Shown here piece after piece: positions 1,386-64,000 of a stretch of DNA of 64,000 nucleotides. Origin of the DNA: an uncultured Chitinophagales bacterium (GTDB lineage: Bacteria > Bacteroidota > Ignavibacteria > UBA10030 > F1-140-MAGs086); the NCBI GenBank assembly GCA_964358705.1, contig CAYHPL010000002.1:173017-237016 (forward strand), in the 5' to 3' direction. The position numbers were made by a program, and so were the translations under genes. The notes below the pieces were generated by a model that was given only the letters and a program-made list of their open reading frames with translations, was not told the origin of the DNA and ran no database searches. Position 1 is the first letter of the stretch. Each line of letters starts with the position of its first letter.

Positions 1386-4160
1386 TTATTTCGCCATCAG
1401 CATTTTATATGAATCTGTAAATTCTCTTCCGTCATTTCCCTGAGCGCGCATCTTACATAAGTAGAGACCGCTGGAAAGATTCGTTCCATCAAATATTATT
1501 TCGTAGTATCCCGCCTCTTTCAATCCGTTTATTATTTCTGCTACTTGTTTCCCATTTAAATCGTATATAGTTATTGTAACCGTTGCATCAACCGGTAATG
1601 CAAATTTTATTACAGTTTTTGGATTAAAGGGATTTGGGTAGTTTTGAAATAAGGAGAACTCTTTTGGAAGCTCGCGTAAATTATTTGTACGCATTTTCTG
1701 TTCATTCGGAATATCATGCGTAAGTATTTGAACGACATTTGAAATAACAGAATAGTTCGATGATGAATCCATTGTTTTTACATAGTAAAATAAACTCAAT
1801 GTATCACCATCCCAATATAAGTTTTCAGAAGCATCAGAATACGAAGTACCTGTTGTGGTTGCTCTGTATTGAAATGAGCCAGTCCATCCGCGCCGTTTGT
1901 ATATTTTGTATTCCTTTCTATCACTTTCCTCCGTGTGTTGCCAATAAATTGTAGGATGCACCTGACCTTCTTCCAAGACACTTATTGTTGGCGCTTCAGG
2001 AGCAGGATCAATTTTAAAAACACCTCCTGCTGTTGCCGCATAAATAATTCTTTTGTTTGTTGGATCACTTCGCAAATCATTCACCGGCTTCGGAAGTGTT
2101 GTGATATTCACAGAGTCCCACGAATTGCCGCCGTTCGTGGTTTTAAAAATCTGATTACCATTTGCAGTAAAAATCCAAACGTGATTGACTGAGGAAGGAT
2201 AACTTGGATGCATTAATATACGCTTTGTTCCGTTGAATGGCGTGTTTATTGATGAAACATTTGAAAAACCATTAACAGATTTCCACAGACTATCATCGCC
2301 TCCTGCATAGACAGTTTGCGCCGTTGTCGTGTTTTTACCATTCACTGCTATAGAACGAATACCATATCCGGATAATTTTTGACTCCACACATCTCCACCA
2401 TCGGAAGATTTGTATACTCCCGATGTCCCACCTAATCCAGCGTATAAGTTTTTTGAATGATAACTTCCATCAAATGAAATTCCCTCGCTTGTATCTATTG
2501 CCAAACAATAGACTGGGACAGAGGCAGTTCCGATTTCTTTACGGTAATTATTATTCGAAGCGGGCCAAGTTTTTCCGGTATCTTTGCTGATATAAAAATT
2601 ATAAGATGCTGTACACGTTCCACCAAGATATACTCTGGCGGAACCTATCTTCGGATCTGATGCAACGACATAAAATCGAGTTACAAAATTTGATGTAGGA
2701 TTTATATCTATTTTTTGCCATACACCATTACTTGTCATACGTACGTATGCGGCTGACTCTCTGTCATCTGTTCCAAAATGATCATTATTCCACTTCCCGC
2801 TATCGCCGCAAACGTATGCAAAATCAGGAAATTTTGAATTGATGTCTGCACACTCTCCACTAAAGTTTCTGCTTGGCTCGCCGTTTTTTTGTTTGATGCC
2901 GATAAATATGGGCCAATTCCAACCGCTATTATAGCGGATGACTGATGAATAATATTTACTAACAGTTATGTTTTCTGCAGCGCGTGGTGCTACGGAATTT
3001 ATGTTGAGAGCCATATATCCTGCATTTATATCCATCCACGCAACTCCTAAATTTGTACTTTTATAAACGGATGTGAATGTTGAGAGATACACTGTATTTC
3101 CTGTTGCATCGTCCAAATCGAATACAATGTATCTTGCATCCTTATCGCTCCATTCTGAATCATTACGCAGAGACCAATTTTCACCGCGATCGGTACTCAA
3201 TGCAAATCCTTCGTCTGTTGCAGCAACGAGTGTTTCTGGCTTTACAGGATGTACTTTCATTGCATTGACAATTTCTATGCCGTTACCCATATCATCTGAT
3301 TTTTCGTTCCATGTTGAGCCAAAATCGGAAGAATAGAATATTTGTGCTGCATTTGTACCTTTATTTGCAGCAAGCAAATACGTATTTGATGCTTTAATAG
3401 ATAGAGCCAATGCTGATATGTTACTGTGACTTGATGAAAGCCCGTTGTCGTAAATGCTTTGACGATGCCAATATAATCCGCCGTCAGTTGATTGCCAGAT
3501 GCCTTTCTCTTTGACCGTTTTTGTTTCTTCATCATCAGTTTTTGGTGGTTCAACTATATCATCCTCTGAGCCGCCCACCCACACGTAGTTTTGATAACTT
3601 CCCGCTAACGGATACGGTAATATTGCGTTTATATACATTCGTACGCTGTCACGAAAATATTCATTGGCTTCAAAATTTTCACCATTATCATCACTTCGGA
3701 AAAAATTTGCAAACGATGAAGTATCTGGTATTTTATCCATTCCGAAAAATGCAAGGTTCGGATCTCCCTCTGAGATTTCTATACTTTGAACATAGAGCCC
3801 TCCTCCTGGTCTACCAGCAGGCGTTACTTCAGGCCATAAATTTCCACCACTTGTAGTTCTGTGTATAAATGCTATACTTCGTACTCCAAGTACGACATTT
3901 GGATTGTTTTTTTGGCAAGCGACCAAAACGGGAGCGCCGGGAAAAATTTCTGATGGTGAATTCCACGAAGTTCCTCCATTTGATGAATAACGCATTTGCT
4001 CTCCATCATTTGCGACCCAGATTTTTTGTGTTGAGCCGCTTTTACCTATTGATAAGCCCAGTGAAGGGTATTTTCTATTTGGACCGTTTGTATTCGTCCA
4101 ACTCTGTCCGTATGATTCTTGTAATGTGCAGGCGAGAAGTGCAAACATCGTCATAAGCAT
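1386..4160 (-). CDS. BNR/Asp-box repeat secreted protein (sialidase-like or sortilin-like beta-propeller) with a T9SS C-terminal sorting domain
   Basis: There are multiple S-x-D-x-G-x-T-W Asp-boxes: STDGGLYW, SSDFGSTW, STDRGENW, STNLGVAW, SKDTGKTW, SSDGGDVW, TTNGGNSW. The C-terminus is LFQNYPNPFNPKTVIKFALP...IYDLNGKQV..GLYLCKMRA, a Por_Secre_tail. The start is taken at the internal MLMTMFALLACTLQ signal peptide (ATG 4160). The longer ORF to 4391 has no signal peptide. Confidence 0.8.
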   Translation of the reverse strand: MLMTMFALLACTLQESYGQSWTNTNGPNRKYPSLGLSIGKSGSTQKIWVANDGEQMRYSSNGGTSWNSPSEIFPGAPVLVACQKNNPNVVLGVRSIAFIHRTTSGGNLWPEVTPAGRPGGGLYVQSIEISEGDPNLAFFGMDKIPDTSSFANFFRSDDNGENFEANEYFRDSVRMYINAILPYPLAGSYQNYVWVGGSEDDIVEPPKTDDEETKTVKEKGIWQSTDGGLYWHRQSIYDNGLSSSHSNISALALSIKASNTYLLAANKGTNAAQIFYSSDFGSTWNEKSDDMGNGIEIVNAMKVHPVKPETLVAATDEGFALSTDRGENWSLRNDSEWSDKDARYIVFDLDDATGNTVYLSTFTSVYKSTNLGVAWMDINAGYMALNINSVAPRAAENITVSKYYSSVIRYNSGWNWPIFIGIKQKNGEPSRNFSGECADINSKFPDFAYVCGDSGKWNNDHFGTDDRESAAYVRMTSNGVWQKIDINPTSNFVTRFYVVASDPKIGSARVYLGGTCTASYNFYISKDTGKTWPASNNNYRKEIGTASVPVYCLAIDTSEGISFDGSYHSKNLYAGLGGTSGVYKSSDGGDVWSQKLSGYGIRSIAVNGKNTTTAQTVYAGGDDSLWKSVNGFSNVSSINTPFNGTKRILMHPSYPSSVNHVWIFTANGNQIFKTTNGGNSWDSVNITTLPKPVNDLRSDPTNKRIIYAATAGGVFKIDPAPEAPTISVLEEGQVHPTIYWQHTEESDRKEYKIYKRRGWTGSFQYRATTTGTSYSDASENLYWDGDTLSLFYYVKTMDSSSNYSVISNVVQILTHDIPNEQKMRTNNLRELPKEFSLFQNYPNPFNPKTVIKFALPVDATVTITIYDLNGKQVAEIINGLKEAGYYEIIFDGTNLSSGLYLCKMRAQGNDGREFTDSYKMLMAK

Positions 4161-4486
4161 TATCTGCTTAATAGACGAAGAGTTTTTCAATGTTTGATTG
4201 TAAAACATAATAATTAAAAAAAAATGCGGCATACTGTTATATTGCCAAGACACAAAATAAAAATATACCGCGAGTTTTCGATATATTTGCAATGCAATAA
4301 TGCGGTTTAGCGATAAAGTTTGGATACGTCTGTCGCAGAAATCGTTGCTATTGCATTCTGTAGTAGTGGCATCTGCCTTGGTAGATGCCATTGCTGTTTT
4401 AAGACAGCAAACTCTTTTGTTAATTATCTTCTCACATGTGAAGTTATGTGTAAAGAGACCTCTAAAAAAGTCACATAAAATTAAAT

Positions 4487-4530
4487 GTCATTCCCGCGAA
4501 AGCGGGAATCCATTGAAGAATAATGGATCC
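4487..4530. repeat. Palindromic fragment GTCATTCCCGCGAAAGCGGGAATCC. It is a partial copy of the hairpin-rich repeat element seen at 35613-35682 and 55905-56045.
   Basis: It is a perfect inverted repeat, CATTCCCGC-GAAA-GCGGGAATC. It is near-identical to TTGTCTTTCCCGCGAAAGCGTGAATC at 35613. Confidence 0.6.
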
Positions 4531-4582
4531 CTAATCAAGTGCGGAAGGAGAAATGGGCTTTTCAGATGTCTCGTTGAGAATA

Positions 4583-6067
4583 TTATTTCATCAAAACCAT
4601 TTTTTTCGTAATAACAGATGTTTTTCCAGTTGCATCTGTTACAGACAGGCGGTAAAAATACAGTCCGCTTGCAAAACCTTCCGCATTCCACTCAGCACTG
4701 TGTTCCCCCGGCTCCATTTTTTCATTCACTATAACTGCCACTTCTTCTCCCAAAATATCATATATTTTTAGTGATACATTTCCAACAGCCATTAATGAAA
4801 AGCCAATAACCGTCTGCGGATTGAATGGATTGGGATAGTTTTGCTCTAGTACAATTGCTTTCGGTAGTTCGTTGGTTTCATCAGGTGAGGAAGTTAAAAG
4901 AGAGCCGTGACGGTAAAAAATATGGAATCCTGTTGTTGTATATCTGTACCAAACAATGTGGAATCCGGATGAGGAAATTGCACTCTTTGGTTTAAGATTT
5001 TTCTCAGTATTCGATGTATCTGTCGGAAAGCAAATAGAAGTCCAGGTGTTTCCCGTATCCAAACTATAACGAAACTGAATATGTGAATTCGATATTGAAA
5101 TTGTCTTTGCCCATGCAAATCCGACAATATTATTCATTATTGCAAATTTTCCATTTTCTGCTGGCAAACCATCAGATTGGTTTGTCAATAATATTTCCTC
5201 TGACCATGATTTCCCGCTGTTTTTGGAAAGCCTCATTGGGATACTACACCCTATATCAATGCAACCAAATTTAGCATCTTTCCAGAGAGTATATACATAA
5301 TGTGATATATTTACTCCGATTGAAATATTTGACGAAAAATTTCCATCGTTTGTTGAGAGCATTGTGGACGGTTGCCATGAGTTTCCTAAATCACTTGACT
5401 TAGTAAATCGCACTTCGCCATTTACTGTGTCTCCAAATACTCTATGTAATAAGCCATCGGGTGCAATCTCCACTTTATCTGCATACCACGTCATTACTGC
5501 TGATTGTGGGTTATACCAATAACTGCCGCCGTCAGTGGAGAGTGAAAATTTCCATTCTGAACTGTTATAATTCTCTCTATAAATAATAAGGACAGAGTCC
5601 CCATTTATTGATGCATATAGTAATTGACTGGTAGTGTCATTAGTAACCTGTAATGGCTGACTCCAATTTACTCCCGCATCAGAAGAAAAAAACAAAAAAA
5701 CAGGTGAAAATCCCTGCCCTGAAGTTCCAGCGATAAATAAGAAAACTTTATTTTTATTTGCAACAATCTTTTGATAGGGAGCTTGGAGAAAATCAGGATA
5801 ATTTTGTAATAAATCTCTGGGTTGCTCAAATGTTAATCCACCGTCTGTGGATCGTGTATAAGGCAGTTTGTAAAAATTTTCATCCCCCCTCCAGGTGACA
5901 TGAATAGTATCTCCCTGTGCCCACAATTCCGGCAAGACATCGTTTGCACTATCAAGAGATATCAGCACACTTTGTCCCCACACCAATCCGCAACTTGTGT
6001 CCCGTGCAAAAGAAATCTGAGTTAATCCAAAATAATACACAAACATTCCAAAAATCCACAAATTCAT
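4583..6067 (-). CDS. BNR/Asp-box repeat secreted protein with a T9SS C-terminal sorting domain. A second, tandem paralog of 1386..4160.
   Basis: Asp-boxes are STDGGLTF, SSDAGVNW, STDGGSYW, SSDLGNSW, SKNSGKSW, SLDTGNTW. The C-terminus is LEQNYPNPFNPQTVIGFSL...IYDILGEEV...GLYFYRL. The start is at MNLWIFGMFVYYFGLTQISFA, a signal peptide (ATG 6067). Confidence 0.8.
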   Translation of the reverse strand: MNLWIFGMFVYYFGLTQISFARDTSCGLVWGQSVLISLDSANDVLPELWAQGDTIHVTWRGDENFYKLPYTRSTDGGLTFEQPRDLLQNYPDFLQAPYQKIVANKNKVFLFIAGTSGQGFSPVFLFFSSDAGVNWSQPLQVTNDTTSQLLYASINGDSVLIIYRENYNSSEWKFSLSTDGGSYWYNPQSAVMTWYADKVEIAPDGLLHRVFGDTVNGEVRFTKSSDLGNSWQPSTMLSTNDGNFSSNISIGVNISHYVYTLWKDAKFGCIDIGCSIPMRLSKNSGKSWSEEILLTNQSDGLPAENGKFAIMNNIVGFAWAKTISISNSHIQFRYSLDTGNTWTSICFPTDTSNTEKNLKPKSAISSSGFHIVWYRYTTTGFHIFYRHGSLLTSSPDETNELPKAIVLEQNYPNPFNPQTVIGFSLMAVGNVSLKIYDILGEEVAVIVNEKMEPGEHSAEWNAEGFASGLYFYRLSVTDATGKTSVITKKMVLMK

Positions 6068-19201: not shown

Positions 19202-19237
19202 AACTATTTCTTTGATTTAGTGAAGTGATTTCCTACT

Positions 19238-19519
19238 CTATTGGCTTTTCGGATACGCCCCGTTTTTTTGAATGGGTTCTGTCTCCATTGATAATTTCGC
19301 AATTCTAAATTTGAATCTTCTATCATTCCAAGAAAAAGGAAATAATTTTGAAAGATTATTTTTTGTTGCTTCAATTAATAATTCCATTGATTTTTCTGTC
19401 GTATCAAAGACATCGTGCAACATAATATTCCTTCCATCAGAACTTGCAATTTGAACAATAAATTCTCTTTCGCTTTCTAAAAATTTATTTTTAGAAAATA
19501 TTTTTACTGACCACCACAT
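19238..19519 (-). CDS. Hypothetical protein
   Basis: 93-aa ORF. No motif recognised. Confidence 0.3.
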   Translation of the reverse strand: MWWSVKIFSKNKFLESEREFIVQIASSDGRNIMLHDVFDTTEKSMELLIEATKNNLSKLFPFSWNDRRFKFRIAKLSMETEPIQKNGAYPKSQ

Positions 19520-19639: not shown

Positions 19640-19900
19640 TTCCATCAAAAACTCAATACTTCAATAATCGAACAAATTATCTCAAAAATTGAATTTCGTA
19701 TTTCAAAAAACGAGATAATTATTTCTGAAATTGAACAAATTACCTCAAAAGTTAAACTACCTTTTTCAAAAATTGAACTCATTAGTTTGAAAACCGAAGT
19801 AGTTAGTTTAAAAATCAAGCAAATTAGTTCAAAATTAAACAAGTTAGTTTAAAATCAAGTAAATTAGTTTAAAATCGAACTACCTATTTCGTTTTTAAGC
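19640..19900. repeat. AT-rich degenerate ~22-bp tandem repeats
   Basis: Recurring words are caaattatctcaaaaattgaa, caaattacctcaaaagttaaa, agttagtttaaaaatcaagcaaatt, agttagtttaaaatcaagtaaattagtttaaaatcgaactacc. Confidence 0.55.
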
Positions 19901-35100: not shown

Positions 35101-35231
35101 AGTTGAACATCGGTATCTACCGGATTATTGTACTCTCTTTTTTTACAGGAAAGTTGCAGCAAAATAACTCCAACAAATACTGTAAAAAGCATTTGGCCAA
35201 AACAAAATATATATTTTGAGAATCGTTTCAT
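29178..35231 (-). CDS. Giant (2017-aa) cell-surface protein. It has about 19 tandem fibronectin-type-III-like repeats plus a C-terminal array of ~48-aa beta-propeller-like repeats. It has a lipoprotein-like signal peptide and no T9SS C-terminal domain.
   Basis: ~95-aa units recur with the pattern P.NL......(T/S)...L.W.DNS..E.GF.IE.S.DG..F...V.AN.T...I.G.....YYFRVRA.....S.YSN. The C-terminal repeats read AKWNG..W..(V/I)G.G....V..L..(F/Y).NELY.GG.FT.A(G/D)G. The N-terminus is MKRFSKYIFCFGQMLFTVFVGVILLQLSC. Confidence 0.85.
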   Translation of the reverse strand: MKRFSKYIFCFGQMLFTVFVGVILLQLSCKKREYNNPVDTDVQLKSPKKLRMVHFKETNIRLEWKNENNFRAFPNTKPYFEIERSTNGRNFSFFAKVKAESLQATFTTENFKDTTYYFRLRVKAGNNASGYSNIISNTLSFPAPTNLTITESSEHNVHLRWSDNNDFESIFSIEQSTDAIHFTEVVTAPRDTHQIGIAGNYFADSTYYFRIRAKSNINTSEYSNIDSTAFDFPAPNNLRIISFGETFIEVRWEDNSSFETGFTLEQSSDNVFFAPVALFKPDSTHGMYFEKFLADSNYYFRLRATTDINVSGYSNSDSIAFQFNAPTELVVLVFNEEELRLQWNDQTYFETGFEVEQSLDSGNTYALVAQVPANEAGAIISGPFYWRYNYYFRVRAVGEINSSPYSTAVPVYFEFLRPTNLRVDSLSETQVTLSWHDNTLNEIAFDIQMSRDSGHYNTLFSTIANVTISTVSAIFVPGVKYYFRVQARSLYNTSDFSNVVSKSPFVAPPKNVAVTDVTESTMILVWEDSTSNELGFDIEESEDSMNFFMVDTVGANKTTDTVHGIFLTTQTYYFRVRARSLHGYSAYSNIAVGKFIFNAPSNMQLLVVTSNSAIVQWTDNSNSETGFEIEEGVNDSDFSWVKTVGANIRSAMILGTFVDDSIYYFRVRAVTENNASPYSNIINTEIALPEPTDLVVTSTTEHSMMLQWIDNCNSEIFTFIERSTDNINYTRIMTLPPNITVANVPGDYLTTETYFFRVRVTAGILSSPYSNYTSATVTFPFPTDMRVLFTSPDTIQLQWLDNCDFESGYSLERSTDGISFEILNAFLSPNTTFYQDANNFLQSITYYYRVRAFTELNFSEYSNIIPANIFSAPDLAIGLITEHSVNLIWTDNTTNETVFEVEKSSNGINYVLQNTVGANITEASVSGPYLTTRSYYFRVRARNANNIGFYSNIPTANLIFPKPTNLALVSLTENTAALQWQDNSDFETQFQIEQSGGGGGFTLVDSIGPNATATTVHGNFSLGENYIFRVRAKSLYNFSSFSNNVVGSAVISPPGNVIVTSATEQNIVLSWIDNSFSETGYEIERSLDGMNFAFVQSVQPNTSSAVIPGNYIAALPYYFRMRTVSGATTSGYSNTATAMVQFPPPSNLLFTSITENTFGLQWVDNTAFETVFEIYRSTDGTNFIHIGDVGANITNTIIAGNYLTTTTYYFKVRAKTNTNASDFSNVVFSTLIFPAPSNLLLHSITMEQVNIQWQDNSSFEIFFQIEQSTDGINFTAIDTISADSTTAAIARNFNANTIYYFRLRAVSLFNVSNYTNTTSGSPSFPAPSNLAVLGMSDSVALLQWTDNSAIETGFEIDTSNDGNIFSLAATYNANSTSGFVTGNFSANTTYHFRIRASDGMNSSGNSNVAQGSFVFLAPSNVRISSINESIAIVQWQDRTQNETAFEIQKSIDGVHFAFIKSVEANSTVASIQDTFYTNQMYYFRVQAIKENIQSGFANMDSIRLQFPSPANFQITEFTTAIFSAHWTDRSNFETGFSIEQSTDGINFSVLQIIPANSTSASITGSFSTVFNYSFRIQAISNYNVSAYSQISNATPNFPAPSLLNISSVSNNIVTLQWQDNSANESVFEIFRSIDGINFTHIQNVGINANSVAILGPYLQSSVYYFKVRAKNASSVSGFSNTVKVFYTSELIAAGAFLTAGGQNAKRIARWNGIEWKPIGNGVSGTVFALYSSGKELYLGGDFTSVNGIEAYRVAKWNGTAWSSIGIGMNSTVRNFAQYNNELYACGYFTVADGNSVNYIAKWNGSNWEQVGGGFDNPVLTLSVFENELYAGGAFTTAGGIAANYLAKWNGTSWSAVPGGIDGTVTTLSVFNNELYVGGNFLNVAGNEMKRIAKWNGNVWSAVGSGVDQIVWSFTNFNNQIFAGGEFENSGSVTLNHIARYDGIDWSSVGTGMNNSVWTLSVFQNELYAGGLFTTANGNTISYVARWNGTYWYPVESGVNAGVYALRPYASWQWENLP

Positions 35232-35329
35232 TTGCAGTGATTATTTGCGTCAAAAATATACTTAAATAATCATTTCAATTTTAATGGAAAAAAGTAAATT
35301 TGAGACAACGAAAAAAGTCAGTAAAAAAA

Positions 35330-35405
35330 TTGTCTTTCCCGCTGACAATTCGGGAGAGGAATCTGCGATAAGAACGTAGATTTCGTGTTAAGCAAAGAAT
35401 GACAC
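35330..35405. repeat. Partial copy of the hairpin-rich repeat element. It matches 35613-35682.
   Basis: It has the same termini, TTGTCTTTCCCGC...GTGTTAAGCAAAGAATGACAC versus ...GTGTCAAGCAAGGAATGACAAT. Confidence 0.55.
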
Positions 35406-35518
35406 TACAATGCAAAGAGAAGCAGAGGCGATGTGAGATTTGTGATATGCGTTCTGCGATATGCTTTCCGGGAATTTTAGATTTTAGAAGTGAGATTTTA
35501 GATTGTTTTGTACAACTT

Positions 35519-35579
35519 CCTTTGCGTTACTCTGCGCTATCCTTTGCGTTACTCTGCGCTATCCTTTGCGGACTCTGCG
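35519..35579. repeat. 22-bp direct tandem repeat, about 2.7 copies (CCTTTGCGTTACTCTGCGCTAT)
   Basis: The copies are exact at 35519-35540 and 35541-35562, followed by a degenerate third. A related sequence occurs inverted at 56000-56045. Confidence 0.7.
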
Positions 35580-35612
35580 TTTAAGAAAGTTCGTTCTGAA
35601 CCGCACACCATA

Positions 35613-35682
35613 TTGTCTTTCCCGCGAAAGCGTGAATCTATGGTAATAACGTGGATTCCGTGTCAAGCAAGGAATGACAATG
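35613..35682. repeat. ~70-bp hairpin-rich repeat element with two inverted repeats (CCCGCGAAAGCG and ATTCCGTGTCAAGCAAGGAATGA)
   Basis: An inverted, near-identical copy lies at 55905-55975 (TTGTCATTCCGTGCTTGACACGGAATC ... ACCCGCTTGCGCGGGTAAGACAA). The flanking ~90 bp are also shared (35563-35612 versus 55976-56045). Confidence 0.7.
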
Positions 35683-35783
35683 CACCGAGAAGGCACACAA
35701 AGTATTTCGCAAAGGTACGCAAAGAGGGAAATGTCTGAATGTATGGCTTTCTCAAAAATAAAAAAGAGTGAAACATCTGTTTT

Positions 35784-35947
35784 ATACCATTTCCAAAAGT
35801 GGAAACAGGGCAAAACGTTTGGAGGATACCATTTCCAAAATTGGAAACAGGGCAAAACGTTTGGAGGATACCATTTCCAAAATTGGAAATAGGGCAAAAC
35901 GTTTGTTGGATGGCATTCCCAAAATTGGGAATAAGGCAAATAGTTCT
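35784..35947. repeat. 42-bp-period tandem array, 4 units. Each unit contains the palindrome TTTCCAAAATTGGAAA.
   Basis: The unit is ATACCATTTCCAAAATTGGAAACAGGGCAAAACGTTTGGAGG. It occurs at 35784, 35826 and 35868, with a degenerate fourth copy. There are no unique spacers. Confidence 0.85.
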
Positions 35948-35959
35948 ATTTCAGATGTC

Positions 35960-37114
35960 TCAATATGACATTGTATTTTGCACTTCCTCGACAGATATTT
36001 CTTTCATACATCGCGCATTGTACGGACAAACAAATGTTTTTGCATCGTAAATATTCATACATGGACTGCAGGAAATATTTTTATAAATCACTCTATTGCG
36101 CCCGCCAATCGGTCCGTAAAATTCCGGTGTCTCAGGTCCGAATAATGAAATCGTGCGCGTTCCCAGCGCTGAGGCAATGTGCAATGGTCCACTGTCATTT
36201 GTCAGTAGCAATGTTGCTCTGCGCAGCAATGCAAGTAATTCTCCAAACGTAAGTTTCCCTGCGACATTGAGTACGCTATTTTTGTTTATTGAAGTAACAA
36301 TGCTTTCCACATAATCAAATTCGTCGTTGCTTCCTGTAAAAAAATAGAGTGCAGTTTCATCATACGCTATTGATAGAAGTTCTGCAAATTTATCAGCATC
36401 CCAACGGCGTTCGAGAAAAGTATTTCCTGCGTTAACGTTTATACAAATGAGTGTCTTGTTTTTTATATCAATGCCAAAATGAGTTTTTATTGTGTATTCC
36501 AAAGAAATTTCATCGCTCTCCAAAATTTCCGGTGAAGAAAGTGCAATGGATGTTTTTTTCAATGTATCGCTTGTTACCTGTGAAAGAAACGCCTCTGCAA
36601 CGTGGTGAAGTTTATTGAGCGGCATCGGATGTGTAACGTGAAATTTTCTCCACTGTGTCGGAAGCGCAAATGCAAATCGTTGCGGTGCAGAAGTAAGCGC
36701 AGAAAGTAGTGTTGAAAATTTAGAAAAGAATTCAAAATCGAAAACGACATCGAATTTTTTATTTTTGCACTCGCGCAACGCAACAATTGTACCGCGGATA
36801 AAATCATCAAGTGTTGCTGTGGATATCGCTATAATAGAATCTATGAATGGCAGGCGTTTCAGTAATTCTTTTTGTGCATTGAAACTTATGAAAGTAATTG
36901 CTGCATTCGGAAAACGCTTATGGATTTCCCGCAATGCGGGAGTGAGAAGAATAATGCTTCCCATACCAAAAAATTTGATTACTAAAATTTGTTTTACATT
37001 TGCATCCGCAACAGCATATCTGCGCCTTTGAAATATCAGTCTCCAAATGCCGAGAAGCCAGCAAAGTGGAATTCCGGCGAAGCGGTCAAGAGCACGCATC
37101 AAACGCACAGTCAT
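35960..37114 (-). CDS. Glycosyltransferase family 9 (ADP-heptose:LPS heptosyltransferase-like)
   Basis: ILVIKFFGMGSIILLTPALREI, LICINVNAG and the C-terminal LLTNDSGPLHIASALGTRTISLFG are present. Confidence 0.85.
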   Translation of the reverse strand: MTVRLMRALDRFAGIPLCWLLGIWRLIFQRRRYAVADANVKQILVIKFFGMGSIILLTPALREIHKRFPNAAITFISFNAQKELLKRLPFIDSIIAISTATLDDFIRGTIVALRECKNKKFDVVFDFEFFSKFSTLLSALTSAPQRFAFALPTQWRKFHVTHPMPLNKLHHVAEAFLSQVTSDTLKKTSIALSSPEILESDEISLEYTIKTHFGIDIKNKTLICINVNAGNTFLERRWDADKFAELLSIAYDETALYFFTGSNDEFDYVESIVTSINKNSVLNVAGKLTFGELLALLRRATLLLTNDSGPLHIASALGTRTISLFGPETPEFYGPIGGRNRVIYKNISCSPCMNIYDAKTFVCPYNARCMKEISVEEVQNTMSY

Positions 37115-43855: not shown

Positions 43856-43940
43856 TACGTTTTACAAATCTTCTATCATTCTCGCCACTTTTTCCCTACT
43901 CATCACGCAATCGCCCACCGAAATTTTTCTCTAACGATGT

Positions 43941-44423: not shown

Positions 44424-45830
44424 CTATATATCAATTTTAACTGATTCGTCTATTCTCCTCGCCACACTTTCTCCGCTCATCACGCAATCACCAACAGAAA
44501 TTCCGCCACGAAAATTTGCACAGAGGAATGTTCCGCGAAAATTTTTTTCAAACTTATCCATTTCCTGTTCAATTTTGTAATAGCCGAGTTCATATTGCGG
44601 AATTGCTTTTTGCCAGCGATTGATTTGCACGAAATACGGCTCTCCTTCAATGCGCATTATTGATTGCAATTCTTCCAGTACTGTTTTCTGTAATTGCGCA
44701 TCATCTAAATTACAAATTTCCGGTTGACGCGAACCGCCTGCAAAAGTAGTCAGTGCAATACTATCATCCGGCGCGCGATTGGGAAACAGTGAAGATGACC
44801 AGATTGTGCCGAGTATTTTTCGTTGCTCTTTTTCAGGAATTAAAAACCCAAATCCGTCAAGTGCTCTTTTCATTTGCGATTTTTTAAATCCGAAAAATAT
44901 TTCTGCGACAGGCGGATAGTAAATATTGCTCAATGTAATTGCCATATTCGGGTCAATCTGTGCAATAATTTTTGCGAGCGCGTATGCTGGAATTGCAAAG
45001 AGAACATTGTGCGATTGCAATGTTTCTGCGCTTCCATTTTGCGTAAAAGAAACAGTGAACATACATTTATTTCCATCGCGCATCGGAATAACATGCTCCA
45101 CTGTTGCATTAAAGTGAATATCGTCTCCAAGAAATTTTGCAATCGCTTTCGGAAACGTTTGCATGCCGTTTTTAAAAGAAAACATTTTCGCAGATTCTTT
45201 GCTCTGTTCTCCGCTCCGGGCTTTTCTCTTCCGTTCTTTTTTTCCGCGAATAACTCCTTTAAAAATTCCACCGTATTTTTCTTCCAATGCAAATAATTTC
45301 GGAAACGCAGAACGCACGCTTAATTTTTTCGGGTCGCCTGCAAATACTCCTGCGACAAACGGGTTGATAAAATAATCGAGAAATTCTTTGCCTAATCTTC
45401 GCTCAACAAATTGCGCAATAGATTCTTCGTGCATTGCTCTTCCCTGGAATAATTCACCTGCAACACGAAACTTTCCTTTCCAGCTGAGTAATTTTGTTTT
45501 TAAAAATGCGGGCGGACTCATTGGCATTTCCTCGAGTTGTCCGTTTTTTAAAATGTATCGCTTGTTCGATGATGCGCTTGCGTAAAGCATTTCATCTGCG
45601 ATGCCGAGTTCGTTGACCATTTGTTTGAAAAGAGGAGTTGTTTCGAGTGCGCTGTTCGGTCCGCTTTCAATCATAAATCCATCAATGACTGCTGTTTTCA
45701 TTGTTCCGCCGACATCCGCGTCTGCTTCGAGAATTGTAACATTCCAGCCGCTTTTTTTGAGAAAATATGCAGCAGTCAATCCTGAAATTCCTGCGCCGAT
45801 AATAATAATGTGCTTGTTATTGTTCATCAA
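44424..45830 (-). CDS. hemY: Protoporphyrinogen oxidase, FAD-dependent (HemY/PgoX)
   Basis: An N-terminal FAD fold IIIIGAGISGLTAAYFLKKSGWNVTILEADADVGG is present. It is ~468 aa and sits in the heme gene context. Confidence 0.8.
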   Translation of the reverse strand: MMNNNKHIIIIGAGISGLTAAYFLKKSGWNVTILEADADVGGTMKTAVIDGFMIESGPNSALETTPLFKQMVNELGIADEMLYASASSNKRYILKNGQLEEMPMSPPAFLKTKLLSWKGKFRVAGELFQGRAMHEESIAQFVERRLGKEFLDYFINPFVAGVFAGDPKKLSVRSAFPKLFALEEKYGGIFKGVIRGKKERKRKARSGEQSKESAKMFSFKNGMQTFPKAIAKFLGDDIHFNATVEHVIPMRDGNKCMFTVSFTQNGSAETLQSHNVLFAIPAYALAKIIAQIDPNMAITLSNIYYPPVAEIFFGFKKSQMKRALDGFGFLIPEKEQRKILGTIWSSSLFPNRAPDDSIALTTFAGGSRQPEICNLDDAQLQKTVLEELQSIMRIEGEPYFVQINRWQKAIPQYELGYYKIEQEMDKFEKNFRGTFLCANFRGGISVGDCVMSGESVARRIDESVKIDI

Positions 45831-55491: not shown

Positions 55492-55689
55492 TGCATAAGT
55501 TCAAATTTCGGGCGAAAATATACGAAGACGAGAAGTATAAACAGAAAATTCATTGTAAATTCTCAATATTGAAAAATAAAATAAGACATACCTGGCTTAT
55601 TTTGAGAATCGCAGTGCAATTTTAGCAAAATCTCCGTTTTCGTATGTATTCCCTCACTCATTAAATCAATAATTGTGCCAAAAAAAAAA

Positions 55690-55716
55690 GAGCATTTCGT
55701 AATTGGAAATGCTCTG
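55690..55716 (-). terminator. Rho-independent terminator (minus strand) ahead of the hem operon promoter
   Basis: On the minus strand AGAGCATTTCcaattacGAAATGCTCT forms a 10-bp stem followed by T9. Confidence 0.6.
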
Positions 55717-55756
55717 TAAATGGGAAACTCCGAAATTTTACTAAAAAAGGCATTTT

Positions 55757-55867
55757 GCCTATTGTAACTTTTTGCAATGCCACCGTGAACGTTCATTGCC
55801 CCATTGCAACTTTTTGCAATGGCACTGTGAACGTTCATTGCCCTATTGTAACTTTTTGCAATGGTAT
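55757..55867. repeat. 41-42-bp-period tandem array, ~2.7 units. Each unit contains the palindrome ATTGCAA-N4-TTGCAAT. It is related to the 35784-35947 array but in opposite orientation.
   Basis: The unit TGCCC(C/T)ATTG(C/T)AACTTTTTGCAATGGCAC(C/T)GTGAACGTTCAT starts at 55757, 55797 and 55838. Its reverse complement is GCCATTGCAAAAAGTTACAATAGGGCA.. , which aligns with ACCATTTCCAAAATTGGAAACAGGGCA.. of the first array. Confidence 0.8.
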
Positions 55868-55904
55868 AAACCAGACTTTTTACTCTTTGTTCATTTTTGT
55901 GGTT

Positions 55905-56045
55905 TATTGTCATTCCGTGCTTGACACGGAATCTATTTTCTTTCAATGGATACCCGCTTGCGCGGGTAAGACAATATGGTGTGCGGTTCATAACAATCTT
56001 TCTTAAACGCAAAGTCCGCAAAGGGAAGAGCAGAGTTACGCAAAG
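55905..56045. repeat. Inverted copy of the ~150-bp hairpin-rich repeat element (compare 35519-35682)
   Basis: GTCATTCCGTGCTTGACACGGAATC, ACCCGCTTGCGCGGGTAAGACAATATGGTGTGCGGTTCA and AAAGTCCGCAAAGG..CAGAGTTACGCAAAG are reverse complements of the 35519-35682 sequences. Confidence 0.7.
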
Positions 56046-56058
56046 AGTTTCTAAAGAT

Positions 56059-56709: not shown

Positions 56710-56845
56710 AATTATTTCCTTAAAAAATTCGAGTGTAATAAACAAAATTATTCCAGTTTTTCCAACACATCCATTTCTCTTTCCAACTTCTTCACCGTCG
56801 CTTTGTGAAACACAGCAGAAGCAAGTGCGCGCGGCGAACTTCTTC

Positions 56846-62567: not shown

Positions 62568-64000
62568 TCAGTTGTTGTTTCTCAAGTGGTACTGTTCATT
62601 TTCAAACACATCCATTTCTCTCTCTAACTTCTTCACAGTCGCTTTGTGAAACACTGCCGAAGCAAGTGCGCGTGGCGAATGTTTATTCCATTTTGTCGGA
62701 GAAGAAAACAGTTCTAATCCCTTCCATATACGAAATCGTTTGTGAATAAGTTTGTGCAATGCGCGATAAAAATCCGGCGGATATGTTCCTTCGTACATCA
62801 TTGCCAAATCCTGACTATCGAACCAATTTTGTTTTTCACCTAACTGCGCTTTTACATTTTCATAAAATTTTGTTCCAGGCAGCGGATATGAAACTGAAAC
62901 GCCGATTTCATCAGGCAAACAATCCTTCACCATTTGAAATGTTTTTTCAATGTCTTCTTTCGTTTCTCCTGTGTAACCGAATTGCAGAAAAAATCCTACG
63001 CGGATATTATTCTCTTTCAGTTTGCGTGACGATTCATAAATTTGCTCAACAGTTGTTCCTTTCTCCATCGCATCAAGAATTTTTTGCGAACCCGATTCTG
63101 CTCCCATCCATGTCGAAGTACATCCTGCGCGTGCCAGTGCGGGAATTGTATCACCTTTCACTAATAAATCCGCCCGCGAAAGACATTTAAACGGAATACG
63201 CGCATTCTGCCTCTGCACGTCATCTGCAAATTGCTGAATCCATCCCGGTTTCAATCCGAAAATATCATCGCAAAACCATAAATGGTCAGGTGCAAATGTT
63301 TCTTTCAGCCAGCGCATTTCTTTTGCTACATTTTCCGGTGAGCGTGTATTATATACTTGTCCGTAAATTGGTTTCGCACACCAGTTGCAATGAAACGGAC
63401 AGCCGCGCGTTGTTACAATATTCATTGAAAAAAATCCGTGCCGTTCTTTCCATACTTGACGATATTGTTCCACATCCACAATATCCCACGCGGGAAATGG
63501 GAGTTCATCAAGTTGATGGAGTACATCGCGTGGCGGTGTGCGGAGAATATTTACGTTTTCCTGTAATGCTAATCCGTGTATCAAAGAAATATTCTTTTCT
63601 GAATTTCCACTATATAATTCGAGCAATTCAAATAGTGTTTGTTCGCCTTCGCCAATTACAACAACGTCTGCGCCGTGTTCAAAATATTTTGAGAAATGGT
63701 CTGCCGCATCCGAACTGTGCATTATTACTTTGCATCCGAATTGTTTGCCGATTGCACACATCCGAAATGCAGCGATGCGCATTCTTTCCAAACACATTTT
63801 TGTGAGGTAATTGAAATCATCATCATAGATGACGAGAAATTTTGGTTGGTGAAGTTGGAGATGCGAGAGAAGTTCTTCTTCAGAAGTGGCAAGCATTGCA
63901 TCAAACAATGCAACGGAATAATTTTTCGTGCGGAGAAAACTTGCAGCGTACAATGTGCCAAGCGGTGCGTATGGCATCATCGAGCGAAATTCTTTTTCAT
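62568..64000 (-). CDS. B12-binding domain radical SAM protein, a paralog of 37906..39294. The 5' end may extend past the window edge.
   Basis: LGTLYAASFLRTKNYSVALFD..VVVIGEGEQT is the B12-binding region and VTTRGCPFHCNWCAK the radical SAM cluster. The reading frame stays open upstream of MMPYAPLG to the window end. Confidence 0.8.
   Translation of the reverse strand, partial: EKEFRSMMPYAPLGTLYAASFLRTKNYSVALFDAMLATSEEELLSHLQLHQPKFLVIYDDDFNYLTKMCLERMRIAAFRMCAIGKQFGCKVIMHSSDAADHFSKYFEHGADVVVIGEGEQTLFELLELYSGNSEKNISLIHGLALQENVNILRTPPRDVLHQLDELPFPAWDIVDVEQYRQVWKERHGFFSMNIVTTRGCPFHCNWCAKPIYGQVYNTRSPENVAKEMRWLKETFAPDHLWFCDDIFGLKPGWIQQFADDVQRQNARIPFKCLSRADLLVKGDTIPALARAGCTSTWMGAESGSQKILDAMEKGTTVEQIYESSRKLKENNIRVGFFLQFGYTGETKEDIEKTFQMVKDCLPDEIGVSVSYPLPGTKFYENVKAQLGEKQNWFDSQDLAMMYEGTYPPDFYRALHKLIHKRFRIWKGLELFSSPTKWNKHSPRALASAVFHKATVKKLEREMDVFENEQYHLRNNN

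Follow-up and report, generated by a model that had tools for sequence, protein, structure and literature searches.

The 64-kb stretch of DNA analyzed here, which we refer to as the window, contains a 728-bp intergenic gap (35232-35959; locus 1) bounded by the stop of a family-9 glycosyltransferase gene and the start of a gene encoding a giant, 2017-aa protein. All repeats listed in this gap by the initial annotation were recovered where it had placed them, far above chance, by Tandem Repeats Finder, alignment and pattern search. Both of the ~70-bp elements that it reported are present, but the first (35330..35405, plus strand) is a decayed REP head-head pair in which alignment and RNA folding revealed an insertion in the left hairpin and a mutated right-unit stem. 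On the same strand follow a 7-bp GATTTTA(GA) tandem repeat of 4.4 copies (35474..35504; Tandem Repeats Finder) and a 22-bp direct repeat of 2.9 copies (35518..35579; Tandem Repeats Finder, 95% matches) with an 11-nt sub-period (CTTTGCG / CTCTGCG). The GATTTTA module was also identified, by Tandem Repeats Finder and from the sequence, in another contig, L130 (738-774), immediately beside a homologous 42-bp array. A conserved linker, TTTAAGAAAG..GAACCGCACACCATA (35580..35611, plus strand), which is common to locus 2 by alignment, leads to the second ~70-bp element, a REP head-head heterodimer (35612..35682, plus strand) identified by pattern search, alignment and fold. Its left unit, TGTC-TTTCCCGC-GAAA-GCGTGAAT-CTA (35614-35641, plus strand), is NTS-like with 4 mismatches, and its right unit, TGTC-ATTCCTTG-CTTGA-CACGGAAT-CCA (35652-35679), lies on the minus strand. 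Beyond the heterodimer, alignment placed an insert specific to locus 1 (35683..35752, plus strand) with two inverted CGCAAAG copies (about 35709-35727) that can pair, as judged by folding, with the CTTTGCG module across the REP pair.

The gap ends with an array leader and a 42-bp tandem array, both on the plus strand. The leader (35753..35786), a degenerate 'unit 0' (GGCTTTCTCAAAAATA...TTTTATACC), is common to locus 2 and partly to the related contig L122 by alignment. The array (35784..35953) comprises four units, the last degenerate, that gave covariance model hits of 40-48 bits; Tandem Repeats Finder reported it at 35784-35940 with a period of 42, 3.7 copies, 92% matches and a score of 244. 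Each unit contains two inverted repeats, pal1 (TTTCCAA-AA-TTGGAAA) and pal2 (AAACGTTT). The 'perfect palindrome' TTTCCAAAATTGGAAA that had been ascribed to every unit does exist as an inverted repeat, but it consists of 7+7 nt around a central AA and is exact in just two of the four units, since one position of unit 1 is mismatched and unit 4 has its own compensated version, ATTCCCAAAATTGGGAAT.

As the initial annotation had noted, the element and the array recur in inverted orientation at a second site, locus 2. On the minus strand, this site comprises a linker with CTTTGCG-type repeats (55974..56050, repeats at 56008-56045; alignment and motif cluster scan) starting ~10 nt past the stop codon of a 228-aa lipoprotein gene, a REP head-head heterodimer (55901..55973; pattern search and alignment), an array leader (55886..55900; alignment) and a homologous array with about 3 units of 42 bp, of which the final one is truncated (55740..55885; covariance model hits, and 2.5 copies at 55758-55864 in Tandem Repeats Finder). 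The left unit of this heterodimer, TGTC-TTACCCGC-GCAA-GCGGGTAT-CCA (55946-55973, minus strand), fits the SRM pattern; the right unit, TGTC-ATTCCGTG-CTTGA-CACGGAAT-CTA (55908-55935), is on the plus strand. The inverted repeats of array 2 are pal1 CCATTGCAA-AAAG-TTGCAATGG and pal2 TGAACGTTCA. Two intrinsic-terminator-like hairpins (55680..55760, minus strand; 55760-55748, and 55715-55689 with a 10-bp stem and a T run) directly follow the array on the transcribed strand. A further, solitary REP copy at 4486..4552 (plus strand; alignment and pattern search) had been missed. It lies 31 nt past the stop of a T9SS-substrate gene and pairs an intact NTS/SRM-type unit, TGTCATTCCCGCGAAAGCGGGAATCCAT (4486-4513), with a decayed partner. 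By alignment the ~70-bp element is thus represented by four copies in the window (35330-35405, 35612-35682, inverted at 55901-55973, and half-decayed at 4486-4552), and a pattern search of the window gave 3 hits vs 0 expected.

Loci 1 and 2 share a 145-nt inverted repeat with 85% identity, plus the array leader with 78%, and are collinear over about 350 nt by alignment. The order of the composite is REP pair, 11/22-nt CTTTGCG repeat, linker, leader and 42-bp array. Alignment and the motif cluster scan identified the 22-bp direct repeat at 35518..35579 as the first module of the composite common to both loci, and this CTTTGCG module, sought in all fetched loci, was present in the window alone. 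As a block of ~350 nt, the composite has been copied to two sites in the window. The two composites have opposite orientations, and each begins or ends 10-13 nt past the stop codon of an unrelated upstream gene. All REP copies in the window lie between same-strand genes near the upstream stop codon, an intergenic position that is a known habit of REPs (PMC3733652).

In the ~70-bp element, two REP hairpins with CGTC/TGTC tags are joined as a head-head heterodimer. CGTC-tagged REPs are defined by an unpaired 5' tag (CGTC, or TGTC/CCTC), an 8-9 bp stem with A-T in the first two pairs, a loop of 4-5 nt and a short unpaired 3' tail of consensus CCA, and form families of tens to thousands of copies per genome, mostly as head-head dimers (PMC3733652). 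In the window, each unit has a tag followed by a stem of 8 bp that begins with AT, a loop of 4-5 nt and a CCA tail; the unpaired 5' tag is TGTC at every unit, the stems and loops (for example, ATTCCCGC-GAAA-GCGGGAAT and ATTCCGTG-CTTGA-CACGGAAT) agree with the definition, and the 3' tail is CCA or CTA. The tags point outward at both 35612-35682 and 55901-55973, as in head-head dimers. The initial annotation had proposed folding the element as a check, and the pair at 35612..35682 folded at -27.7 kcal/mol (z -5.4). As judged from its sequence, the left unit is the dRS3/NTS motif of Neisseria. The NTS sequence and the SRM search pattern, HGTCWYN(0-2)YYVSBRHN(0-5)WNVSBRGN(0-2)RNCYNB, were taken from published work (PMC11893778), and the pattern matched the window twice, at 4486-4513(+) and 55946-55973(-), vs 0.05 matches expected. 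The 4486 unit departs from the NTS consensus at 2 positions and is the only place in the window with the exact dRS3 core ATTCCC-N8-GGGAAT, whereas the unit inside the reported locus (35614-35641) is mutated, has 4 mismatches to NTS and does not fit the SRM pattern.

Beyond the window, a degenerate 24-nt pattern over the right unit was found at at least 120 loci in at least 95 assemblies of many phyla, including candidate-phyla-radiation bacteria. Among the matches listed, the same tag-outward partner was present in 53 of 122 scorable copies, with TGTC (32) or CGTC (17) tags, a GAAA loop in 29 and a CCA tail in 43 of the 53, and the stems of the copies from other phyla covary. This one-hairpin pattern, part of a 28-mer in most copies, is also found in many phyla without being tied to the other half. 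In loci from other phyla, GIY-YIG genes were close to such hairpins in 5 of 6 cases and were bracketed on both sides in 4; the association was seen in L118, L029, L042 and L107. A jackhmmer search found no GIY-YIG ORF among the ORFs of the 64-kb window. In Neisseria and Wolbachia, small GIY-YIG nucleases of the Ssn family bind and cleave such hairpins, and do so only when the DNA is single-stranded (PMC11893778). By analogy with this published family, the REP hairpins would act in single-stranded nucleic acid, and their origin and spread would most likely be through Ssn nucleases, whose genes, of the cd10448-type single-domain GIY-YIG class, are typically bracketed by the same hairpins. The idea that GIY-YIG proteins are a novel 'missing transposase' of CGTC REPs was dropped, as they are already published as the Ssn family. 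Viral contigs were scanned three times for the REP pair and the array, with no hits other than single chance matches within genes. A literature search for REP-derived peptide strings gave no match, and one with DNA strings led to the Neisseria sequence.

The 42-bp array is an independent, satellite-like family of double-hairpin units. Homologues were found on nine further contigs from eight further lineages (L122-L124 and L130-L136), with a period of exactly 42 bp in all ten lineages, a regularity that is partly an artefact as seven were found through open reading frames. In the array consensus, ATT-stem-AAAA-stem-AAT AGGGCA precedes a second, variable palindrome. Positions in pal1 were 90.5% paired, with CG/GC/UA and CG/AU/UA/GC variants at two pairs, vs 25-53% in slid-partner controls; compensatory changes keep the units palindromic. 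The arms of pal2 vary from lineage to lineage with palindromy kept, and the unpaired bases CCATT, AGGGCA and GGAT are conserved across lineages. The same holds within the window, where the palindrome arms differ between the two arrays and the unpaired bases are conserved. Together, the covarying arms, the variable yet palindromic pal2 and the conserved unpaired bases pointed to a constraint at the level of the hairpin and argued against a shared dimeric operator. The array model gave no hits in 647 kb of REP-bearing loci, indicating that array and REP are independent families. The edge units are decayed and copy number differs in related contigs, with 13.7 units in L122 vs about 7 in L124 between the same flanks, and the array therefore probably grows and shrinks, as it would by slippage or unequal exchange. 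A literature search for 42-bp tandem palindromic repeats in bacteria returned nothing relevant, and the array family seems to be undescribed. No hits were obtained when 14 frame/lineage translations of the array were compared with a large protein index, although a profile search of a representative protein library did find array homologues. Seven profile hits of 441-1561 aa (P0009, P0012, P0013, P0017, P0019, P0020 and P0030) were rejected as false positives and read as real proteins; several of the long false positives have 14-residue repeats.

At locus 2, the sense strand of the 3' UTR folded at -113.7 kcal/mol (z -6.1). Array 2 folded equally well on either strand. The minus strand of array 1 folded with a z of -5.3; at this locus it is the antisense of the units that folds better. 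No canonical terminator was predicted at locus 1. Terminator-like hairpins with T runs were also seen by eye after the array in L130. In E. coli, the REP325 cluster is both a terminator and a stabilizer (bioRxiv 10.64898/2026.03.23.713779). Hairpins transcribed at the 3' end of an upstream operon would similarly impede read-through and shield the mRNA from 3' exonucleases. At locus 1 they would act as a barrier between the glycosyltransferase operon and the giant gene, and at locus 2 they would form a structured 3' UTR ahead of the two terminators. We infer that the local effect, if any, would be 3'-end termination or mRNA stabilization. The 'expression tuning' that had been suggested for the surface-protein gene may be true solely in the generic sense of REP clusters as 3'-UTR terminators and stabilizers.

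The 20 kb between the two loci contain heme-biosynthesis genes, indicating a chromosomal housekeeping context, and array 2 occupies a 3' UTR that precedes a cytochrome c assembly gene and the heme operon. A giant secreted fn3-containing gene has an array 553 bp (in the window) or 618 bp (in L122) upstream of it, with the array oriented away from the gene; the L122 protein carries a T9SS sorting domain. Orthology of the two giant genes was considered and rejected, as they share fn3-type repeat similarity alone and the intervening DNA is unrelated. The placement of an array upstream of such a gene was seen in two of three array contexts, counting those found by DNA pattern or within the window, and is not predicted by a purely neutral model. 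Homologous arrays elsewhere occur in both orientations beside genes for a histidine kinase, an ABC permease, a TIR protein and a hydrolase, and relative to neighboring genes the orientation is random (3 sense, 3 antisense). All three REP sites in the window adjoin, or are one gene from, genes for large secreted proteins, three of which carry a T9SS sorting domain; secreted-protein genes, several with this domain, are common across the window. A Bacteroidetes-type -7 box was read by eye ~20 nt upstream of the ATG of the giant gene, far from the array. The Hainich groundwater population to which the window belongs is represented by three independent assemblies, which were 100% identical across locus 2, array included. 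All other contigs with the flanking genes are 100% identical to the window; they come from the same population and are therefore uninformative on variation.

Among the explanations offered by the initial annotation was an array of dimeric transcription-factor operators, under which the 42-bp array would be a binding platform for a dimeric DNA-binding protein, whether a regulator or a nucleoid/partition-type protein, that controls the giant-gene promoter. The two inverted repeats per unit suit this reading, with centers 21 bp (two helical turns) apart in two of three arrays and 19/23 bp in the third, as do the conserved non-palindromic CCATT, AGGGCA and GGAT, the position 553 or 618 bp upstream of a giant fn3 gene pointing away, and stems with no G-U vs A-C strand bias, which fits double-stranded DNA. 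However, the variable part of the units is the arms that would serve as half-sites, which differ even within this one genome from array to array, whereas the spacers are conserved. In addition, array 2 is placed in a 3' UTR before a cytochrome c assembly gene, the composites are oppositely oriented beside unrelated genes, and arrays elsewhere have either orientation beside histidine kinase, ABC permease, TIR protein and hydrolase genes. No regulator gene is adjacent (the 228-aa neighbor is a lipoprotein), and the putative -7 box of the giant gene is far from the array. We consider a dimeric-protein platform very unlikely. The same strand counts bear on another reading, in which the composite, or just the array, is a free-standing structured ncRNA gene equipped with a promoter and terminator of its own. 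Such a gene would account for the strong folds (locus 2 sense, z -6.1; array 1 minus strand, z -5.3), for covarying stems with conserved unpaired bases, and for the T-run hairpins past the array at locus 2 and, by eye, in L130. Yet G-U vs A-C in the stems on the unit-sense strand was 7 vs 14, which gives no strand signal; array 2 folds alike on both strands, and locus 1 favors the antisense of the units. A permissive Rfam scan of the locus gave no match even at an E-value of 10, no promoter-like site was predicted upstream of the leader, and array length is two-fold variable between related contigs. The proposal of a structured ncRNA gene was unsupported by Rfam or by a strand-specific G-U signal and is quite improbable.

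Phase variation had also been suggested, and in a broader form the repeats would be NIME-like hot spots where recombination occurs or incoming ssDNA is processed, raising variation of the adjacent surface-protein genes, or the array copy number would phase-vary expression. In Neisseria, dRS3/NTS motifs cluster near variable surface-protein genes (PMC1797815), and cutting by SsnA at NTS modulates transformation (PMC11893778). The dRS3/NTS character of the left REP unit, the three window REP sites near large secreted-protein genes and the difference between 13.7 and about 7 array units in related contigs are in keeping with this idea. Adjacency is weak evidence since secreted and T9SS genes are common in the window, the three assemblies of one population are identical at locus 2, array included, and other arrays have no surface-protein gene neighbors. 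The start codon is also more than 500 bp away from the array, which does not lie between promoter elements. A hot-spot or phase-variation role is, like the ncRNA gene, quite improbable. Of the four candidates in the initial annotation, a MITE-like mobile repeat family came closest for the ~70-bp element, in the form of a CGTC-tagged REP / NTS-SRM family of many phyla. An ordinary MITE, mobilized by a DDE transposase that leaves target-site duplications, is nonetheless the least probable reading, to the point of being almost negligible. The element is small, non-coding and multi-copy and has a terminal inverted repeat made up of its outer arms, TTGTCWT / ATGACAA, but no target-site duplication was seen by alignment and by eye at any of the four copies. 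In addition, it contains two REP-type tagged hairpins, which the literature ties to single-strand-specific enzymes and not to DDE transposases (PMC3733652, PMC11893778), and the 24-nt pattern of one hairpin recurs across phyla without the other half. A further reading is that the arrays are undescribed, widespread tandem structured repeats of T9SS-bearing (FCB-group) bacteria that have, as in the REP-RAYT and NTS-Ssn pairs, a hairpin-specific protein partner of their own, and would serve as sites of processing or recombination. Such a partner would explain the conserved unpaired bases, the covarying stems and the giant secreted-protein neighbors in two lineages, and we regard it as unlikely.

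On the question of whether these repeats are abundant or unique to the two loci, the family-level evidence leans toward the repeat-family side. The locus is probably a BIME/NIME-like mosaic of at least four short-repeat families and not a device dedicated to the giant gene. This result removes a tempting over-interpretation, that of a bespoke regulatory array for a giant adhesin-like gene, and places the locus in the known framework of REP/NTS hairpins recognized by single-strand-specific nucleases. The REP part is already known. The NTS-type pair, in one fixed heterodimer layout, occurs in far more phyla than the published surveys consulted here reported, and in this FCB-group groundwater bacterium a REP pair is welded to other modules, as in the Neisseria mosaics once thought genus-specific. 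The 42-bp arrays are routinely mistranslated by gene callers into spurious ORFs with a 14-residue period, and their recognition would clean annotations. The array family is worth study if a protein partner exists.

Several known systems resemble parts of this arrangement. The initial annotation had set aside a CRISPR and an IS, and both judgments held: the 42-bp units are contiguous, head to tail, without spacers, and the locus has no transposase. A search of Rfam with 35200-36000 returned nothing better than an E-value of 3, and window-wide hits at gathering thresholds were two tRNAs and a DUF805 RNA, all outside the locus. The sopC centromere of the F plasmid consists of tandem 43-bp units with a 7-bp inverted repeat in each, lies on a plasmid beside sopAB and has constant half-sites. 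The 42-bp array is similar in unit length and in having a 7-bp inverted repeat per unit, but unlike sopC-like centromere or iteron arrays it has variable half-sites and lies in a chromosomal heme-biosynthesis region. None of the flanking genes examined was noted to be ParB-like, the neighbors being heme-biosynthesis, glycosyltransferase and secreted-protein genes. Pneumococcal BOX elements (boxA, 45-bp boxB in variable number, and boxC) are likewise modular, with a variable number of ~42-45 bp tandem units, a stable fold and a dispersed intergenic distribution. There is no sequence relationship, however, and the A and C ends of BOX pair together, whereas the 42-bp array also occurs alone.

The REP component has closer counterparts. 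With the NIMEs of Neisseria it shares the 20-bp ATTCCC-N8-GGGAAT core, the mosaic arrangement with other repeat families and a position beside surface-protein genes. NIMEs, however, consist of numerous dRS3 and RS units that alternate over long stretches, and have been described as Neisseria-specific, whereas the window has one or two REP pairs per locus and its CTTTGCG repeat and 42-bp array are unrelated to RS. Sequence similarity to the NTS/SsnA system (PMC11893778) extends to the 4486 unit, 2 positions off NTS, to the fit of the 4486 and 55946 units to the SRM pattern, to a right unit that is NTSvar-like (tag CGTCAT, 5-nt loop, ATC tail), and to the small GIY-YIG genes that such hairpins adjoin, and often enclose, in loci of other phyla. 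It differs in that the window has no ssn gene, the unit within the reported locus is mutated, and the control of transformation seen in Neisseria cannot be assumed for this bacterium. The match to CGTC-tagged REPs (PMC3733652) includes the unpaired CGTC/TGTC tag, the 8-bp stem starting with AT, the GAAA or CTTGA loop, the CCA tail, the head-head dimer (here a heterodimer) and the intergenic position, flanked by same-strand genes and near the 3' end of the upstream ORF. That survey reported the family in 5 phyla, whereas the 24-nt right-unit pattern reached at least 95 assemblies of many more phyla, and the window family is low-copy (4 sites in 64 kb) and fused to other repeat modules. CGTC REPs were reported not to flank RAYT genes (PMC3733652), and the window tag is TGTC rather than the GTAG of REPIN/RAYT systems, in which REP doublets accompany a flanked, IS200-like RAYT gene. 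The REPs of E. coli are GTAG-tagged, RAYT-linked and unrelated in sequence to those of the window, yet its BIMEs and REP325, as clusters of palindromic units in the 3' UTRs of tandem gene pairs, suggest the working model that we propose for these loci.

Between the 2017-aa fn3 gene, which starts at 35231 (minus strand), and a family-9 glycosyltransferase gene, whose stop lies at 35960 (minus strand), there is a gap of 728 bp, designated locus 1. As the initial annotation had described, it is almost wholly repetitive. Tandem Repeats Finder identified within it a 42-bp array at 35784-35940, with 3.7 copies and a score of 244, along with repeats of 22 bp (35518-35579, 2.9 copies) and of 7 bp (GATTTTA, 35474-35504). 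At locus 2 it identified a second 42-bp array (array 2; 55758-55864, 2.5 copies). The palindrome annotated as perfect in each 42-bp unit is an inverted repeat of 7+7 nt centred on AA, which two of the four units carry in exact form, and the ~70-nt element copy annotated at 35330 is present but degenerate. The inverted recurrence of element and array near 55757-56045 was borne out by a repeat finder run on the window: 35542-35686 and 55901-56045 form a 145-nt inverted repeat with 85% identity, and the sequences leading into the two arrays are 78% identical. Placed in a common orientation, both loci were collinear over ~350 nt, in the order CTTTGCG-type repeats, conserved linker, ~70-nt element, leader and array, with a 64-nt insert between element and leader in locus 1 only. 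This shows block duplication of the composite at two loci. The repeat finder and a pattern search added a fourth copy of the ~70-nt element, half decayed, at 4486-4552. The two 145-nt composites flank the whole 20-kb haem-biosynthesis segment, which recombination between them would hypothetically invert.

Each copy of the ~70-nt element consists of two hairpins face to face. The left hairpin reads TGTC-ATTCCCGC-GAAA-GCGGGAAT-CCA and the right hairpin, on the opposite strand, TGTC-ATTCCGTG-CTTGA-CACGGAAT-CCA. Such an anatomy is that of the CGTC-tagged REP superfamily, whose members carry a tag (CGTC or TGTC), a stem of 8-9 bp that begins with AT, a loop of 4-5 nt and a CCA tail, and occur mostly as head-head dimers with the tags outside (PMC3733652). 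The neisserial CGTC-1 class of this superfamily is dRS3 (PMC3733652), and CGTCATTCCCGCGAAAGCGGGAATC was found in the published sequence upstream of N. gonorrhoeae pilE. The NTS, a 28-nt extension of dRS3 (CGTCATTCCCGCGMAVGCGGGAATCYRG), was defined in a 2025 study and is bound and cut, as single-stranded DNA only, by the small GIY-YIG protein SsnA; bacterial ssn genes are typically flanked by Ssn-related motifs (SRM) (PMC11893778). The SRM pattern matched the window twice, at 4486-4513 and 55946-55973 (0.05 matches expected); the unit at 35614, which has a mutated stem, does not match it. These results show the REP/SRM identity of the ~70-nt element. The REP pair is not new: its family was described in 2013, and a functional explanation followed in 2025.

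Species-representative genomes were scanned with a degenerate 24-nt pattern over the right unit, which matched at least 120 loci in at least 95 assemblies (counted by accession prefix). The taxa listed were Ignavibacteria, Flavobacteriia, Nitrospirota, Nitrospinota, Chloroflexota, Planctomycetota, Campylobacterota, Syntrophia and other Thermodesulfobacteriota, Elusimicrobia, Melainabacteria, Caldisericia, WOR-3 and several candidate-phyla-radiation groups. CGTC REPs were listed in five phyla in 2013 (PMC3733652); a spread over so many phyla, candidate-phyla-radiation groups included, goes far beyond that and is striking for a non-coding repeat. Among the matches listed, 53 of 122 scorable copies had an upstream inverted tagged hairpin with its tag outward, as in the window. 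In the upstream partner, the loop was mostly GAAA and the tail mostly CCA, and the stem covaried (CGC/GCG, TGC/GCA, GGC/GCC and others), again among the matches listed. The right-hand REP 28-mer, TGGATTCCGTGTCAAGCACGGAATGACA, was unchanged in most of the at least 120 loci (L001-L120), and a TGG prefix preceded nearly always the same core in 79 of the 122 scorable copies among the matches listed.

Small GIY-YIG genes adjoined the hairpins in Pareuzebyella, a Flavobacterium, a Syntrophaceae MAG and an Endomicrobia MAG. A hairpin lay close to five of six such genes and bracketed four of the six on both sides. Loci with a GIY-YIG gene (PF01541) and CGTC-type hairpins were L118 3499-4841, L029 5586-6117, L042 1100-6730 and L107 6300-6700. 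One REP-gene-REP cassette in L042 is accompanied by a 46-nt direct target duplication that takes in the start of the neighbouring gene, which hints at mobility. In Pareuzebyella sediminis (L118), the REP heterodimer is tandemly repeated with a period of 98-101 bp on each side of the GIY-YIG gene (3499-3821 and 4243-4841; 3.3 and 5.8 copies), a NIME-like array outside Neisseria. No GIY-YIG gene was found in the 64-kb window.

The 42-bp array belongs to a family distinct from the REP pair. Run on the window, a covariance model of its unit (R1) recovered the 4+3 units alone; in 647 kb of REP-bearing loci it had no matches, indicating that array and REP travel separately. A pattern scan found homologous arrays in three metagenome contigs (L122, L123 and L124), none with a REP beside the array. 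L122 and L123 overlap, with no differences noticed, and L122 carries 13.7 units where the related contig L124, with the same flanks, carries ~7, showing copy-number variation. A search of 1.84 billion representative proteins with a profile built from the translated arrays gave 31 matches. Many shorter ones showed a 14-residue periodicity (GI.K.GNRA.....D) and resemble spurious ORFs; all seven whose DNA was read were 42-bp arrays of 3.3-7.7 units. The long matches that were read are real repeat proteins and were rejected as array translations. Two of these, P0012 (1561 aa) and P0009 (1354 aa), have long 14-residue repeat runs (ITKTGNSRI... and FGNDAARLE...); their match to the pseudo-translation is probably coincidence, though the shared 14-codon period is curious. 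An IS110-family transposase gene (L134 2645-3712) lies 1.3 kb from a 7.7-unit array; IS110 elements target REP-type palindromes. Other 42-bp (2 x 21) arrays lie 100-400 bp from REP hairpins in Flavobacteriaceae (L086 2178-2369 and L068 2538-2746), the L086 unit containing ATTTTAGAAG and a GCCAnnTGGC palindrome; since R1 detects neither, they are probably different families of the same period.

In L131, array and REP occur together again, a CGTC REP pair following the array; further arrays have REPs of other types or the GATTTTA module next to them. Relative to same-strand flanking genes, three arrays were sense and three antisense. In the window and in L122, a giant secreted fn3-containing gene lies 553 and 618 bp, respectively, from an array that is upstream and points away. 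The protein from L122 additionally carries a T9SS sorting domain, and the two giant proteins were rejected as orthologues. With so few contexts, this adjacency in two lineages may have arisen by chance, or may stem from the intergenic regions next to such genes being long and tolerant.

In the ten lineages compared, the unit kept its unpaired bases (CCATT, the A-rich loop, AAT-AGGGCA and GGAT), and inner-arm changes in the first inverted repeat were compensated: pair 7/18 was CG, GC or UA, pair 9/16 was CG, AU, UA or GC, and 90.5% of cells were paired compared with 25-53% with a slid partner. Compensated first-repeat arms were also seen separately in a three-lineage comparison. The second inverted repeat was a different palindrome in almost every lineage, for example AAACGTTT, TGAACGTTCA, ATAACGTTAT, CCTGAAACGTCAGG, AAACATGTTT and CGGAAGTTTCCG. 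Each array was decayed at both edges, the pattern expected where homogenisation of a satellite takes place in its centre. These results show that the 42-bp array is an independent family with compensated palindromes, and the sequence pattern suggests that the hairpin is the level at which selection, or templated correction, acts.

The three REP-bearing gaps of the window (four REP copies, two in locus 1) all lie between same-strand genes, and one end of each repeat block is 10-31 nt past the upstream stop codon; same-strand gaps close behind an upstream stop are the published habit of REPs. The locus 2 composite is sense, in the 3' UTR of a lipoprotein gene, and is followed on the transcribed strand by two predicted terminator-like hairpins; this stretch of 379 nt folds at z -6.1. 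The locus 1 units are antisense to the operon, and the transcribed strand of that array folds better (-47.9 kcal/mol, z -5.3, against -40.1). Between the loci lie 20 kb of ordinary chromosome, not plasmid or island, with genes for the haem pathway and a hybrid sensor kinase and a handful of small genes. Elsewhere in the window, an 81-nt direct repeat (91% identity) joins the 3' end of a radical-SAM gene (62599-62679, within 62568-63980) to 56758-56838, between genes for 1397 and 228 aa; the copy at 56758-56838 is thus an intergenic fragment of the coding end. Similarly, one copy of a 57-nt direct repeat (43869-43925 and 44446-44502; 79% identity) is the 3' coding end of an amine-oxidase-type (HemY/G-like) gene and the other, in the gap of 870 bp that follows downstream, may be what remains of a gene fragment. 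Positions 19226-19293 (minus strand) hold a DUF805 RNA motif (Rfam RF03081, 68.8 bits), ~500 bp from a 20-bp tandem repeat of 5.6 copies (19768-19882).

The initial annotation had proposed an array of dimeric transcription-factor operators. A shared operator should keep its arms, however, and the array does the reverse, with variable compensated arms and conserved unpaired bases, as expected of hairpin-level constraint; its neighbours are also unrelated (histidine kinase, ABC permease, TIR protein, hydrolase and glycosyltransferase). We consider operators improbable. A free-standing ncRNA, to which stable folding might seem suited, is likewise a poor candidate: on the unit-sense strand G-T mismatches showed no excess over A-C mismatches (7 against 14) and array 2 folds equally well on both strands, so no RNA polarity is singled out. 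There is little probability that the locus is a recombination or phase-variation hot-spot. Other assemblies that contain the flanking genes are identical and represent one and the same Hainich groundwater population, and are thus uninformative on variation. A classical MITE is an unlikely description of the ~70-nt element, whose two tagged hairpins are those of a REP dimer.

We conclude that locus 1 is a BIME/NIME-like mosaic. Its REP units may arise and spread via an Ssn-type single-strand nuclease, and the 42-bp arrays would change length by slippage. E. coli REP clusters act as read-through barriers and mRNA stabilisers (bioRxiv 10.64898/2026.03.23.713779), and by analogy the transcribed hairpins may combine both roles. 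The literature search found no published description of the 42-bp array family, and no Rfam model was found for it. The GIY-YIG loci in other phyla match the NTS-ssnA-NTS architecture (PMC11893778), and their association with hairpins reproduces the published Ssn link and is not new. The mosaic habit itself is already known from Neisseria (NIME) and enterobacteria (BIME).
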